This document shows positions 17,246 to 21,477 of a stretch of DNA of 64,000 nucleotides, in pieces. A program made the position numbers and the translations under genes. A model generated the notes under the pieces. That model had not been told where the DNA came from. It was given only the letters and a program-made list of their open reading frames with translations, and did not search any database. This DNA comes from Candidatus Undinarchaeales archaeon (GTDB lineage: Archaea > SpSt-1190 > JASMDC01), in the NCBI GenBank assembly GCA_030753015.1, contig JASMDC010000005.1:1-64000 (forward strand), in the 5' to 3' direction. Every line of letters begins with the position of its first letter. The stretch's first letter is position 1.

Positions 17246-17764
17246 ATGTCCCTCAACGTCATGCTCCTCGCCCAGGAGCTCGGCCGCCTCAAGCGTGTTC
17301 CCCGGACGGGTTGGGCACTACGCGGCGTCCCTGAGCCCGAGTCTGTCGCGGACCATACGTACCGCACGGCCGTTCTCGCCATGGTCCTCGGTGACCGCCT
17401 TGGGCTCGATACGGATCGCATGGTGCGCATGGCGCTCCTTCACGAGCTGTCCGAATGCCGGACGGGCGACATCCCGTCGGGGGCCATCCCGACCGAGCAG
17501 AAGACCGCGCTCGAGCGTAACTTGGCAAGGGACCTGCTCACCGCCGCCGGCGACGAGGGACCGTACCGGGAGCTCATCGAGGACTTCCTTGAAGGGAGGA
17601 GCCGGGAGGCGCGGCTCGTCCGTGACCTGGACAGGTTTGAGATGCTCCTTCAGGCGCTGGAGTACCAGGACGCGGGATTCCCGGTGTTCGAGGAGTTCTA
17701 CGCCAACACGATCGAGTCCATCCGTGAGCCCGAGGTACGGGCGCTTGCGGAGGCCCTGCGGTGA
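17246..17764 (+). CDS. HD-domain 5'-deoxynucleotidase (YfbR/HDDC2-like)
   Basis: LKRVPRTGW, ESVADH, LLHELSE..TGD, RDLDRFEM. Confidence 0.9.
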   Translation: MSLNVMLLAQELGRLKRVPRTGWALRGVPEPESVADHTYRTAVLAMVLGDRLGLDTDRMVRMALLHELSECRTGDIPSGAIPTEQKTALERNLARDLLTAAGDEGPYRELIEDFLEGRSREARLVRDLDRFEMLLQALEYQDAGFPVFEEFYANTIESIREPEVRALAEALR

Positions 17765-18183
17765 GGTCCTACGAGTTCCTCCCCCACACGGCGGACATCA
17801 AGGTCCTGGCCCGAGGCGACACTCTGGCCGAGGCCGTAATGGCAGCAGCCGACGCACTACTGGCATCCATAACCGATCTCAGCAAGGTCCAGGACAACGA
17901 AGTGATCGATATCACCATACGCCAGCCCGACCTCGAAACGCTGCTGGTCTCGGCATTGGAGGAGCTGTTGTTCTATCACGAGACCGAGGGGATGGTGTTC
18001 AAACAACTCGCAGTAGCACGTGTGGAGGAAGGTCCCGACGGGTGGCTCCTCCATGGAAAGGCCCACGGCCAGTTCATCTCCGGCCATCTCATCGAGACCG
18101 AGATCAAGGCCATCACGTACAACGATATCCGCGTGGAGCGCGAAGGGAGCGGCTGGATCGTCCAGATCGTGTTCGATATCTGA
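17761..18183 (+). CDS. Archease
   Basis: YEFLPHTAD, EIKAITY, C-terminal FDI. Confidence 0.95.
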   Translation: MRSYEFLPHTADIKVLARGDTLAEAVMAAADALLASITDLSKVQDNEVIDITIRQPDLETLLVSALEELLFYHETEGMVFKQLAVARVEEGPDGWLLHGKAHGQFISGHLIETEIKAITYNDIRVEREGSGWIVQIVFDI

Positions 18184-18370
18184 AGAGGGCGGCGTACCGC
18201 AGGATATTTACACCGGGTTTGAGACAGAAAGCTCATCCGATTCATGGGTGGGATGAATGGTGTGTTCCCCGAGGGGGACCAAACCCGAAAAATACTATGA
18301 CCACACGAATACCGGCACCTTTTAGAATTTTACCCCTGAGCTGAACGGCCTCGTTCTTGAAAACGCATAA

Positions 18371-18386
18371 CGGAAACGTATATATT
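18371..18386 (+). promoter_or_regulatory. BRE-TATA for the putative antisense RNA
   Basis: CGGAAAC-GTATATAT, with an expected transcription start near 18402-18406. No plus-strand gene follows. Confidence 0.55.
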
Positions 18387-18401
18387 GTTGTCGAGAAATA
18401 G

Positions 18402-18501
18402 TCGTATAGCTGCTCCAACCCCCCTCGAGGGGGGTCGGCGGCTCGGGGCGCAGCCCCGTGCCGCCGGGGGGGTGGCTTCATTGCATCAACTCCCTTTTTT
18501 T
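18402..18501 (+). ncRNA. Putative split-antisense sRNA to the transposase translation-initiation region
   Basis: Arms 18403-18417 and 18481-18493 match 19657-19684 (27/28 nt) around two GC hairpins. TATA upstream and T7 tract at 18495-18501. Confidence 0.6.
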
Positions 18502-18513
18502 CCTTCTCACATC

Positions 18514-18681
18514 GGGACAGGATGTATACCGCACGCACCTTTCGAGGCTCTGGGCCTATGCTGGTTAGGGGTTGAGGAGCTCACCAGTCACGCCGTGAGG
18601 ATTCCCCCGGTCCATTGAGGCATAGTCGAAGATCGGACCGAGCTCATCTCCTTAGCCGGTATTTGGTGATGTTCCTGTCCC
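18514..18681 (-). ncRNA. Putative bridge RNA / seekRNA
   Basis: 9-bp closing stem GGGACAGGA/TCCTGTCCC. An internal loop closed by TCACCA/TGGTGA carries AATACCGGC and GGCGTG, matching the two flanks of the element. AAAGGTG matches the element right end plus core. Confidence 0.75.
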
Positions 18682-18694
18682 TTCAGATGAAGGA

Positions 18695-19672
18695 CTATGA
18701 TGGCCTGAACGGTTCCTCCTTGGTGAGCATGTGCCAGACGTCGGTCAGCATCTTCCGTGCGATGCTCCTTCTTGCGGTTTTGTAATCGTTCCTCCGGTTG
18801 ACCCGGGAGAAGTGACCCGTGTATCGATCGTCCTTCATGATGGCCCTGCCAGAGCATTGGTACATGATCCACTTGAGCCACTTGTTACACGCCTTTATGC
18901 GCACCGAGTGGCTCGTATTCCCGGACTGCTTGATGCCGCGGCAGAGACCTGCGTAGCTCACAAGGCTCTTCGGCCTCTTGAACCTTCTGATGTCGCCGAT
19001 CTCGCCCAGGATCATCAGCGAGCCGAAGCTACCGATACCGGGGACCGTCTGTAGAAGGCCGGCCCGATAGTTGGTGCGGGCGATTATGTCGATCTCCTTT
19101 TTGACTGGCTTGATTTCCCCCTCGATCGCTTCCAGGATATGCACGAGGTTCGCGATCTTAGGGTCGAGGCTCTTGAGATGCTCAAGGTCCTTCTTGTTCC
19201 ACGTTATCCTGAAGATATTCCCATCCATGGCGAGGAAGGCCTTGATCCTGGACTTGAGCGAGGTCTGTTGCCGGACCATACGGGCGCGGTGCCGGGTAAG
19301 GTCACGCAGCATCAGGATTTCCTCGTCCGGAATGTAGACCCGGGGGAGGAAGTTTTTACTGAGAAGCTCAGAAAGGAGCCTGGCGTCGACCTTGTCCGTG
19401 CTCCTGGCATCGGCGATCCGGCGGACCTTGAGAGGATTGGCAAGGGCCACCTCGTAGCCCATATCTTTCAGGATCCTGTATACTCCACGCCAGAGACCAC
19501 AGGCCTCGATGGCTATCGTCAGGGATGGGCTTGGTATCCCTTCGAAGAACTTCTCGATGGCCTTCCTTGTGTAAGGGATCGTCTTCTCCCGTTCAATGGT
19601 CCCGTCCCCGTGGCGCACTATTCCACGAAGTGTTTCTTTATGGATGTCCATAGCTCCGTATAGCTGTTCCAT
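18695..19672 (-). CDS. IS110-family transposase (DEDD RuvC-like plus Tnp domain)
   Basis: AMDIHK, IEACG, STDKVDA, TVPGIG, IGDIRRF, SYAGL...QSG. GGAG SD. Confidence 0.95.
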   Translation of the reverse strand: MEQLYGAMDIHKETLRGIVRHGDGTIEREKTIPYTRKAIEKFFEGIPSPSLTIAIEACGLWRGVYRILKDMGYEVALANPLKVRRIADARSTDKVDARLLSELLSKNFLPRVYIPDEEILMLRDLTRHRARMVRQQTSLKSRIKAFLAMDGNIFRITWNKKDLEHLKSLDPKIANLVHILEAIEGEIKPVKKEIDIIARTNYRAGLLQTVPGIGSFGSLMILGEIGDIRRFKRPKSLVSYAGLCRGIKQSGNTSHSVRIKACNKWLKWIMYQCSGRAIMKDDRYTGHFSRVNRRNDYKTARRSIARKMLTDVWHMLTKEEPFRPS

Positions 19673-19854
19673 TGCATCAACTCCAGTTCCGATAAGCTGG
19701 TTATCGGAACGGGTCTACTCTCCATTGTAAAATTCTATAGACAGTCACGCCACCCTCCGGTTCTATTTAATGCTGAAATGTCTACTACAGTTAGGAGGGA
19801 TGTTCAAGGGATTTCAAGTGAAATGAAGAGGCGACGGTCATCTGTGATCATCCA

Positions 19855-20010
19855 TTGGATGCCTTCATCAGCATGCTCCGCTACCAGGCTGTAATGGCCG
19901 GGACGGAGCTGGTCGAGATCGATAGGGACGTGAACGCTGCACTGAACATACTCGCAAGAGCTAGGGCTGGACGAGCCCGAAGTCACGCCTGCGGAGATCC
20001 CGCCTCTACT
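19855..20010 (+). pseudogene. tnpB: tnpB C-terminal remnant with the zinc finger deleted
   Basis: DAFISMLRYQAVMAGTELVEI is joined directly to DRDVNAALNILARARAGRARSHACGD. Confidence 0.75.
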
Positions 20011-20123
20011 CCTGCCATAAACGCGGGAGCAAGTGGGATTGTCGAACCAGGAACTATACGTGGTGAGCCCTTCGGGGCGATAGACGCTGGAAGACTGAGG
20101 CTTTGGCCTCAGGAGGATGTCAC
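20000..20123 (+). ncRNA. omegaRNA-like scaffold / IS605 right end, copy 1
   Basis: Overlaps the 3' end of the tnpB remnant, contains a GCCC-TTCG-GGGC hairpin and ends in TCAC. Homologous to 53385-53496. Confidence 0.55.
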
Positions 20124-20244
20124 ACAAGGTATTTAGTGCTCTGGTGCCTTATTGTGTATAGAAGAGAGGCGTCCAACTCGTTGAGATACGTCCCGAAGTC
20201 GTTCCCCCGCCACCAACGACCAGAAATCACAGACACCGACCACT

Positions 20245-21477
20245 ATGGCGACTCCACGACCCGAGACCACAAAGACGGTACTTGGGGAAGGCGACGGCAG
20301 TCATACGAGCATGGGCCTTTCACGAGGAGCCTCGCGGCCGGCCATCCTGTCCTTGACGGCCATCCTCATCCTTATAGCGATGGTCACCACGGCCGCCGCC
20401 CCGGAAAGTGCGGGCCCCGAGGCCACTTGCACGTGCCCCGGTACGGTGAACGTCTCCACGCTCACCTGTTCATACCACGAGGACGCCGTGATGGATGGCG
20501 GTAATGTCCCGTACGGACGAACGACCTGTGGGCCGGACATCTGCCCTGTGTACACCGCGCACCTCGGGTACGAGCGGGAACTGTGTCATCCACGCGACGG
20601 TCCAATGCCAGCTATCGGGATCACGAACATACGCATTCGCTCCCATCGGATCCCAGAGGGCGGAATGGTCGGGCGTGTCACGTTCAAGGTTATCCACTCG
20701 CCATACCTCCAATCCGCAGAGAATGCGAACAAGGGCTGTGACCACTGTCGAGCGACCGTATCCTACAGGAACATCATCAAGAGCTGTACGCACCTTGTAG
20801 ATGGCCTGTTCAGCTGTGACGTCCCCGGGCCCGTGACTACCGTACAGCGCCCTGTTGTCACGATCATCGCCATGGACCCTTTGTGCCATCACTGTACAAA
20901 GGCCGATGCACCGCATCTGTGCGATTACGAGGGCAGCCCCTCCCCTGAGACAGGTACATGCATGCTCCACATCGACGCCCACGTCCAGACCGCGTTCTCC
21001 CTTGAACGCTTTGTCGAGCTCGAAGTGCGGAAGATGACGGGGACAGCTGACATCGTGGGCGACTCGATGAAAGCGTACGTGGGTGAACGGTTCGTGCTAG
21101 GTGCACGTGTTACCAACTACTGGACCATTCCGGTGAACGTCGTGCTCATACTGGATAGAAAGGGGATCTGGTCGACCTTCCAGGAACGATCGTTCCCCCT
21201 CCTTCCGGGTGAGACAAGGACCGTGCCTATCGAACTGTTCCCCTACACGCGGGTCCCTGATGCCCGCATCTCGCTCTCCGTTGAGGAAGCAGGAATCCGC
21301 AGTCTGCTCGACGAGAGCTCGTTCCACGTCCAGGTGATACATCCGGGTGGTAGCTCGTTCATGACCCATGCTCCGGGTGTGGGCCCTGTGGACACGGCAC
21401 TCCTGTTCGTGTTCGCATCATTATTCCTAGTACACCGGAGCGCACGGCCGTTCACCCGCAAGGGAACGTATAAATAG
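20245..21477 (+). CDS. Secreted Cys-rich protein with Ig-like region and C-terminal membrane anchor
   Basis: Hydrophobic signal-like segment, many Cys in the N-half, APGVG plus TM helix plus basic tail. Start may be 20311. Confidence 0.7.
   Translation: MATPRPETTKTVLGEGDGSHTSMGLSRGASRPAILSLTAILILIAMVTTAAAPESAGPEATCTCPGTVNVSTLTCSYHEDAVMDGGNVPYGRTTCGPDICPVYTAHLGYERELCHPRDGPMPAIGITNIRIRSHRIPEGGMVGRVTFKVIHSPYLQSAENANKGCDHCRATVSYRNIIKSCTHLVDGLFSCDVPGPVTTVQRPVVTIIAMDPLCHHCTKADAPHLCDYEGSPSPETGTCMLHIDAHVQTAFSLERFVELEVRKMTGTADIVGDSMKAYVGERFVLGARVTNYWTIPVNVVLILDRKGIWSTFQERSFPLLPGETRTVPIELFPYTRVPDARISLSVEEAGIRSLLDESSFHVQVIHPGGSSFMTHAPGVGPVDTALLFVFASLFLVHRSARPFTRKGTYK

Follow-up and report, generated by a model that had tools for sequence, protein, structure and literature searches.

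The 64,000-nt stretch of DNA analyzed here (the window; Candidatus Undinarchaeales archaeon, assembly GCA_030753015.1, contig JASMDC010000005.1, positions 1 to 64,000) contains an IS1111-type insertion sequence (IS) of the IS110 family. In the right end of this element, the region where translation of its own transposase is initiated was found a second time, split into two arms by a GC-rich insert. Judging from the sequence, this right-end module may be a plus-strand gene for a trans-acting antisense repressor of transposase translation, a reading that we put forward tentatively and with somewhat less than even confidence. Four independent properties that a gene for a trans-acting antisense RNA requires coincide in it: complementarity with the AUG at its center, a promoter-like motif in the right orientation and at a fitting distance, a fold with a free seed tail that is specific to the plus strand, and, after the seed, a rare T-run.

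The split copy of the transposase start region

The transposase (bridge recombinase) is encoded on the minus strand. Because its N-terminus, M-E-Q-L-Y-G-A-M-D-I-H, fits the conserved start of 30 homologues (M-x-K/Q-L-Y-x-G-x-D-I-H, kept across the 31 sequences), the ATG at 19672-19670 was taken as the true start. The features of the gene and of the module are listed below, where SD is the Shine-Dalgarno sequence, BRE the transcription factor B recognition element, and L018 the only other copy of the element found outside the genome of the window, among the matches listed.

18695..19672, minus strand: transposase (bridge recombinase), 325 aa; Pfam DEDD_Tnp_IS110 (1.1e-17) and Transposase_20 (2.3e-18)
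19657..19684, minus strand: translation initiation region, the unsplit 28-nt copy (GGAG, 8 nt, ATG, codons 2-5)
19683..19713, minus strand: 13-bp hairpin directly 5' of the SD, in the left end; inverted pair GUUCCGAUAA...UUAUCGGAAC
18373..18384, plus strand: BRE/TATA-like promoter motif GAAA-CG-TATATA, inward-facing; predicted start ~18409; identical in L018
18403..18417, plus strand: 5' arm CGTATAGCTGCTCCA, complement of ATG and codons 2-5; 14/15 against 19657-19671
18418..18435, plus strand: hairpin 1, ACCCCCC-TCGA-GGGGGGT, from the fold; same in L018
18436..18466, plus strand: hairpin 2, from the fold; one half and the adjoining G-run variable
18479..18493, plus strand: 3' arm CATTGCATCAACTCC, complement of SD, spacer and ATG; 15/15 against 19670-19684
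18495..18501, plus strand: T7 tract (A7 on the transposase strand), starting 2 nt past the 3' arm; identical in L018
18409..18499, plus strand: predicted small RNA of about 90 nt, from promoter geometry, fold and T7 tract

The repeat was observed directly: together the arms are complementary to the start region at 27 of 28 positions, centered on the AUG. The dinucleotide CA (TG of the ATG on the transposase strand) stands at the inner end of both arms, giving the layout 13 + CA + 13, and for this reason the 3' arm was read as a 15/15 match from 18479. A first-pass annotation of this DNA had described the repeat with 14/15 matches in the 5' arm and 13/13 from 18481 in the 3' arm; the repeat is real and the first count stood, and the second had to be extended. 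The arms, the hairpins, the BRE-TATA and the T7 tract of that annotation were otherwise recovered where it had placed them.

The net insert between the repeat halves is 63 nt. Across the 3.85-Mb genome, the 15-mers of the arms are confined to the element; the 13-mer has one additional location, the end of contig C80, where another copy of the IS lies. A 65-nt probe of the insert gave only chance matches of up to 17 nt elsewhere in the genome, and the sequences of hairpins 1 and 2 had no second genomic copy even when up to 2 mismatches were allowed. It had been considered earlier that the insert might be a dispersed miniature inverted-repeat transposable element (MITE) or repetitive extragenic palindrome, and the insert proved to have no other copies in the genome. 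From the 13+TG+13 shape, the module may have originated when the start region was duplicated; an insertion would then have split the copy, which would have been co-opted later.

With 1164-1281 nt between it and the start region, the module is not arranged like a cis-encoded antisense RNA of the RNA-OUT type. The complementarity to the ribosome-binding site that characterizes a trans-encoded base-pairing small RNA is present, at 27/28.

As a side observation, a hairpin also stands at the place equivalent to 19683-19713 in the relatives L019, L020, L022, L023, L097 and L098 (GUGCUUAU...AUAAGCAC); the structure was retained and the sequence replaced.

Promoter-like motif, fold and predicted small RNA

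To obtain the promoter consensus of this organism, GAAA-NN-TTTAWA, the 36 predicted tRNA genes were taken with 60 nt of upstream sequence each; many of them showed GAAA, two bases and TTTAWA about 30-38 nt before the mature 5' end. The site at 18373-18384, within CGGAAAC-GTATATAT (18371-18385), fits this consensus on the plus strand; on the opposite strand, GAAA is missing at that spacing. Counted over both strands, the genome has 86 sites of the motif GAAANNTWTAWA. A start of an open reading frame (ORF) of at least 100 aa was found within 24-90 nt in the forward direction in 52/86 cases and in the reverse direction in 22/86, compared with 11.5% of random positions (n=3000). The TATATA subtype gave 17/28 forward and 5/28 reverse, and TATATA without GAAA gave 246/754. 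The motif is a good oriented promoter predictor in this genome. No ORF of at least 100 aa lies downstream of the site at 18373-18384, and it would therefore be an orphan promoter that points to the module. Among the new points in favor of the antisense RNA, a predicted transcript of the plus strand, the statistics on the promoter motif weigh most. A scan for sigma-70 promoters and terminators is irrelevant for an archaeon.

The start predicted at ~18409 was set about 30 nt past the first T of TATATA. The first-pass annotation had let transcription start at the 5' arm from this promoter: the motif does match the host consensus and predicts direction, while a start at ~18409 keeps only about 9 nt of the 5' arm.

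The minimum-free-energy fold of the plus strand (18398-18501) has -57.5 kcal/mol with z -5.0, and 0/200 shuffled sequences equaled it. It consists of the two hairpins and the closing helix AGCUGCUCC/GGGGUGGCU. The minus strand folds at -48.3 kcal/mol (z -2.9) without the closing helix, because three G-U pairs turn into C-A. The T7 tract is preceded by 17 nt complementary to SD, spacer and AUG; in the plus-strand fold these stay largely unpaired, and the tail that they form is predicted to be unpaired in both the window and the L018 alleles despite 11 differing positions in their bodies. In the window allele, the structure thus agrees with what had been described earlier, i.e. two GC hairpins, a closed junction and a free anti-SD arm. 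The pairing with the start region, which had been proposed as a check, was favorable: cofolding with the first 146 nt of the mRNA gave a free-energy change (ddG) of -21.4 kcal/mol. Energies from RNA duplexfold were uninformative (-62.4 against -58 +/- 5 for shuffled GC-rich RNAs).

Archaeal RNA polymerase is known to stop at oligo-T. T-runs of at least 7 occur 55 times on one strand of the 3.85-Mb genome. The T7 tract does follow the 3' arm at 18495-18501, as had been reported; a crude test, described below, did not confirm that oligo-T terminates transcription in this genome.

From these features, an antisense mechanism would run as follows. The inward BRE/TATA at 18373-18384 would start transcription near 18409 and give an RNA of about 90 nt, with a GC-rich body of hairpins 1 and 2, closed by AGCUGCUCC/GGGGUGGCU in the window allele, and with a 3' end made of the single-stranded tail UCAUUGCAUCAACUCCC followed by U's. 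This predicted tail would be the exact complement of the SD, spacer and AUG of the transposase mRNA, and the 5' part would add pairing to codons 1-3 after the body opens. The pairing would mask the ribosome-binding site and reduce transposase translation in trans, from all copies of the element. The small RNA would also be a perfect complement of read-through from the transposase and the bridge RNA, which adjoins the module on the minus strand, and such read-through could titrate it. A complete three-part circuit, in which a small RNA from the far end masks the ribosome-binding site in trans and bridge RNA read-through soaks up the small RNA, is in our estimate an unlikely elaboration. If it were true, the transposase would be translated, alongside its guide RNA, only under strong transcription, e.g. 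from the circular junction.

Relatives, RNA library data and competing explanations

A number of observations weigh against an antisense repressor, and the distribution of the module is one of them. In 47 loci of the IS110 family, drawn from 58 with a full-length match and sufficient flank (among the matches listed), the longest exact match was determined between the start region of each locus and the 450 nt past its stop. The start region was not repeated downstream in any of the 47, except in L045, which is a tandem IS. The mean longest match was 7.9 nt in direct and 6.6 nt in reverse orientation, with 6.9 and 6.5 nt in the coding control. In L045, from a Thermoplasmata metagenome-assembled genome (MAG), the start region is identical over 43/43 nt and lies 256 nt past the stop of an IS110-family gene, i.e. 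in a tandem pair of elements.

The ten nearest right ends (43-53% protein identity, among the matches listed) have a tail of about 60 nt without the arms. In order, this tail shows an A-rich/TATA-like stretch, an SD-like box with an ATG and an immediate stop (9/10), and the end. An A-rich tract stands behind the bridge RNA in 10/10 relatives. The SD-like box is independent of the elements' own start regions, since L097 and L098 have the same box and different starts. The A7 tract and the 3' arm of the window align with the ancestral A-run and the SD-ATG-like box. It may therefore be for another reason that the T7 tract and a part of the 3' arm were inherited, and they were perhaps the seed of the duplication. 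The first-pass annotation had expected the arms to covary with the SD and first codons of each homologous element; the arms are absent from the relatives tested, and no such covariation was obtained.

The SD-like box was itself recorded in L019-L024, L097-L099 and L101 (9/10) as GAGGTGA or variants, with a spacer of 4-8 nt, about 35-50 nt before the right end. The SD-ATG-stop box is a candidate for a start-stop mini-ORF, for a promoter-proximal element of an outward promoter, or for an anti-SD on the other strand.

L018, with 96% protein identity, was compared with the window as follows.

Start region: 0/28 differences
3' arm: 0/15 differences
5' arm: 1/15 differences, which would be a G-U pair in the antisense model
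Insert, including a 4-nt indel: 11/61 differences
Bridge RNA region: 4/175 differences
Rest of the gene: 34/962 differences

The insert is thus the most variable stretch of the element (11/61 against 34/962 in the gene). L018 lacks the junction-closing helix and its body folds otherwise, with the tail still free. With one shared and one private change, the module is no older than about the split between the window and L018, and it is young; for this reason, long-term or purifying selection on the arms cannot be shown. For the mismatch common to both copies, the antisense model implies C-A, and a sense-RNA/DNA model implies G-T. The mismatches do not decide the strand, because the private change of L018 shows the opposite pattern.

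Positions 18452-18477, a G/C homopolymer, hold substitutions and the 4-nt indel between the copies, and metagenome contigs break at 18460-18474. Behind this variability stands a hot spot of mutation or else a difficulty in assembling the GC hairpins. The 2841-nt contig of L018/L177 is labelled as a Kiritimatiellia (bacterial) MAG, yet its IS is flanked by the TnpB-type repeat of the archaeal genome, and the contig was probably mis-binned.

Further copies of the element were found neither in the sister genome G001 nor in the genome of L018, and among the genomes of the same family, class and phylum (2, 17 and 17) the transposase was present only in the window's own genome. Homologues in the protein database had at most 60% identity, the element itself aside, and those on genome and metagenome contigs at most 53% besides L018, among the matches listed. 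Plasmid sequences gave no match to the element. A 15-mer scan of viral contigs returned at least 118 single chance matches, none of which was used.

A crude test on oligo-T also counts against the small RNA as drawn: runs of T6 or longer lie after the end of a long ORF in 26% of cases and runs of A6 or longer in 23%, and only 6/36 tRNAs have T4 or longer within 40 nt downstream. At the other end, 18403-18408, about 6 nt of the 5' arm, falls outside the predicted RNA. Since these positions would be untranscribed, a function of the RNA does not account for the full 13-nt identity of the 5' arm, which is better explained by origin than by function.

An ambiguous RNA contig is a further point against it. 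The element was found in 19 DNA runs that came from 12 studies of marine or seawater metagenomes, some of them possibly its source, and part of it in one metatranscriptome library, run X20.

18472..18687, strand unknown: 216-nt metatranscriptome contig, record 14 of run X20

The span of this contig takes in the bridge RNA, the 3' arm with the A7/T7 tract, and 7 nt of the insert; with 31 letters below 18503, it links the 3' arm and T7 tract to the bridge RNA region. Its simplest reading is a transcript of the transposase strand that extends past the bridge RNA, which fits at least as well as the antisense RNA; the 3' arm is probably also present in RNA in sense orientation. The contig neither shows nor excludes a plus-strand RNA. 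The library may contain DNA, and its contigs carry no strand or end information; a DNA contaminant would be expected to cover the transposase gene too. No contig of X20 lay on 18371-18471 or on the transposase gene, which is not evidence that RNA is absent there. The contig end at 18472 was not read as an RNA end, because it coincides with a DNA-contig break of X19 (18460-18474) and with the variable G-run.

Much of this would fit a module that is a scar without function, an explanation that we consider unlikely on balance while ranking it directly after the antisense repressor. A 28-nt copy of the start region would have arisen in the right-end tail, e.g. by template switching onto an ancestral SD-ATG-like box. 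A GC-rich hairpin insertion of 61 nt, which duplicated 2 bp (CA/TG), would then have split this copy, and the bridge RNA transcript would now carry it in its trailer. The 13+2+13 layout, in which the dinucleotide flanks the insert on either side, resembles an insertion event, and a box able to seed the copy stands at the equivalent place in 9/10 relatives. The identity ends sharply at both sides, and about 6 nt of it precede the predicted RNA start. All relatives tested lack the module, which is young, and the insert is hypervariable, with assemblies breaking inside it. However, a scar leaves aside the oriented promoter-like motif, which has a forward predictive value of 61% and is aimed at the module from the right distance, and the better folding of the plus strand than of the minus strand. 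The insert has no other genomic copy, and thus no mobile source of it is known; the arms were kept (0/15 and 1/15 changes) compared with 11/61 in the insert, a difference that is not significant at so few sites.

The unbroken course of the RNA-library contig from the bridge RNA across the A7 tract and the copy of SD and AUG, with the bridge RNA on the same strand, would also suit a role on the sense strand, which we judge improbable. The module would then be a 3' domain of the transposase/bridge RNA transcript and a look-alike of the ribosome-binding site. It could load or trap ribosomes, compete with the true start for a common binder, or protect the 3' end of the bridge RNA; as a variant, it could be a sponge for an antisense RNA, as proposed for Ssr9 of ISPpu9. 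In 9/10 relatives an SD-like box with ATG-stop stands at the equivalent place, independent of their own starts, and in an excerpt of the ISPpu9 report the distal Ssr9 is described as having the sense in common with the 5' region (PMC12288879). Against such a role, the fold of the minus strand is weaker (z -2.9), the ORF from the copied ATG is out of frame in L018 owing to the 4-nt insertion, the inward promoter is left unexplained, and a decoy has no known partner. To a similarly low degree, we consider a plus-strand RNA that acts only in cis, by pairing with the read-through trailer of the bridge RNA or by interfering with convergent transcription. Such an RNA would help to fix the bridge RNA's 3' end or its level, and the match to the start region would be a by-product of the origin of the module. 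It shares the promoter evidence with the trans-acting repressor, and its complementarity to the trailer is perfect by construction. Excerpts of two reports provide parallels: a processing role was suggested for the ISPpu9 antisense RNA by its authors (PMC12288879), and abundant cis-antisense RNAs to transposase genes of the IS110 family are described in Haloferax volcanii (PMC5892119). A cis-acting RNA, however, leaves unexplained the choice of the start region and a free tail that is exactly anti-SD and anti-AUG.

Other candidates were rejected. A small protein from the copied ATG loses its frame in L018. A third loop of the bridge RNA type does not fit, as the arms share one sense and have no match in target or donor. 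For a bulge-helix-bulge intron, inspection by eye showed no flanking helices, and a C/D-box RNA would lack its D box. As to other targets in trans, the tail has two near-matches, one in C37 and one in C35, and neither is the start of a gene.

Bridge RNA, the element and known systems

A covariance model of the bridge RNA was built from the ten relatives (43-53% protein identity, among the matches listed), which have a conserved two-loop RNA right after the stop codon, one loop of which co-varies with their left flanks. The model found the bridge RNA in the window and at the equivalent place in L018. The following features belong to the bridge RNA and to the element.

18511..18684, minus strand: bridge RNA; covariance-model match, 22 bits, E 0.0013, full length, single match in the window
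18655..18663, minus strand: right target guide AAUACCGGC, reverse complement of the right flank of the target
18585..18594, minus strand: left target guide, core and handshake-like part GGCGUGACUG, equal to the left junction (left flank, core and first element bases)
18535..18542, minus strand: left donor guide and core AAAGGUGC, equal to the last element bases and core
~18319..19745, minus strand: IS1111-type IS110-family element, ~1427 bp; ends ambiguous by the shared CAC
18316..18318, no strand: core/target copy CAC on the right-end side; second copy at 19746-19748
18323..18333, no strand: subterminal inverted repeat, partner 19727-19737, 11/11, 4-8 nt from the ends

The closing stem of the bridge RNA, GGGACAGGA/UCCUGUCCC, is present in its fold. 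Relative to the window, L018 shows a compensating change, with the guide AGUACCGG and the right flank CCGGTACT. The strand and place of the bridge RNA are settled; 18 nt separate its 3' end from the 3' arm, and it converges with the proposed small RNA. The first-pass annotation had described an IS1111-type element whose bridge RNA converges with the proposed RNA, and the Pfam domains, the covariance match and the guides agree with it. The guide at 18655-18663 and the flank at 18306-18315 change jointly, AAUACCGG with CCGGTATT in the window and AGUACCGG with CCGGTACT in L018, which is a natural case of bridge RNA re-programming.

The module resembles the loops of the IS621/IS1111 bridge RNA in having two arms around a stem-loop, each with a central dinucleotide, in a non-coding right end, as these loops are described in excerpts of PMC11208160. 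In contrast to those loops, whose arms pair with opposite DNA strands (PMC11208160, same excerpts), the arms of the module have the same sense. The module is not a bridge RNA loop; the true bridge RNA adjoins it at 18511-18684.

IS10 RNA-OUT and IS200 art200 are the classical cases of antisense control of transposase translation. The candidate RNA would be like them in being a small RNA on the ribosome-binding site and first codons of its own transposase mRNA, acting in trans on all copies. They are transcribed opposite the targeted region, whereas the candidate would be transcribed 1.2 kb from its target, at the opposite end of the element, out of a copied stretch that a structured insert splits, and in an archaeal host. 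If real, it would be a variant of a known control and not a new principle.

In ISPpu9 of Pseudomonas putida, which belongs to the IS110 family, Asr9 overlaps the 5' untranslated region in cis and activates translation, according to excerpts of the report (PMC12288879). Ssr9 lies downstream of the transposase gene, pairs with Asr9 and not with the mRNA, is flanked by copies of the IS end boxes, and also exists as independent MITE-like copies (PMC12288879, same excerpts). The likeness, which makes ISPpu9 a partial precedent, consists in small RNAs beside a bridge RNA, a distal RNA that shares sequence with the 5' region, and a proposed control of translation. The module differs from an ISPpu9-type MITE, since its arms copy the start region and not the ends, and since it has no independent genomic copies. 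The earlier statement that no distal RNA of the kind was known in IS110/IS1111 elements needs qualifying, as Ssr9 is encoded downstream of its transposase, according to these excerpts (PMC12288879); a distal split antisense RNA in IS110/IS1111 was not found in the titles and abstract openings searched, with most subscription journals outside the search. Haloferax volcanii likewise has archaeal small RNAs against transposase mRNAs, including those of the IS110 family; these are overlapping antisense transcripts from RNA-seq, and the excerpts of that report do not describe them as distal or bipartite (PMC5892119).

Bridge recombinases are under development as programmable genome-editing tools, and little is known of their natural self-restraint. 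If the small RNA is real, this family would have in it a natural off-switch and a sensor of copy number, in the form of a compact, separately promoted RNA acting on the recombinase in trans; it would also be an archaeal trans-acting small RNA with a clear target. The three-part circuit, if true, would give the IS110/IS1111 family, and archaeal ISs, a first trans-encoded bipartite antisense regulator. Should the module be no more than a scar, what the locus records is still an archaeal IS1111-type element that is active, a bridge RNA with co-variation of guide and target, and insertion into the left ends of TnpB elements.

The borders of the element were fixed by 8 uninterrupted target repeats and by 3 further IS ends at the termini of contigs C58, C20 and C80. 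When the genome was probed with 18200-19900, the flanks proved to be part of another repeat family, and three contigs were found to stop within additional IS copies. The right-end junctions are alike in the window, C58 and C20, the left-end junctions are alike in the window and C80, and the 8 empty sites, ...ACCGG-CAC-GCCACC..., share ACCGG-CAC-GCC. The core dinucleotide is probably TG on the transposase strand. The left end has 73 nt and the right end 376 nt, i.e. short left and long right as in the IS1111 group; excerpts of PMC11208160 name this asymmetry and subterminal inverted repeats as IS1111 features. The element belongs to the IS1111 group of the IS110 family, as its domains, inverted repeats, site-specific insertion with a shared core, and bridge RNA all indicate. 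A search of 17500-20500 against Rfam gave no match.

The site that hosts the IS is the left end of a TnpB element of the IS605 family (18208-18318 and 19746-20136 in the window; 531-1850 in L014). Full TnpB copies, e.g. in C29, encode a 439-aa protein with HTH_OrfB_IS605, OrfB_IS605 and Cas12f1-like TNB domains. The TnpB start codon follows the target ACCGG-CAC-GCC after about 45 nt, and at least 8 uninterrupted target copies are present in the genome. The TnpB copy in the window is cut down to a 93-aa C-terminal piece. Here one RNA-guided element homes into another, the IS1111-type IS into the TnpB element. An archease gene (Pfam PF01951, E 1.9e-38; window 17761-18183) ends 25 nt before the TnpB-type repeat. 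The same genome (G000) also carries a second, distant transposase gene of the IS110 family (C28:13627-14616, L017), with 27% identity.

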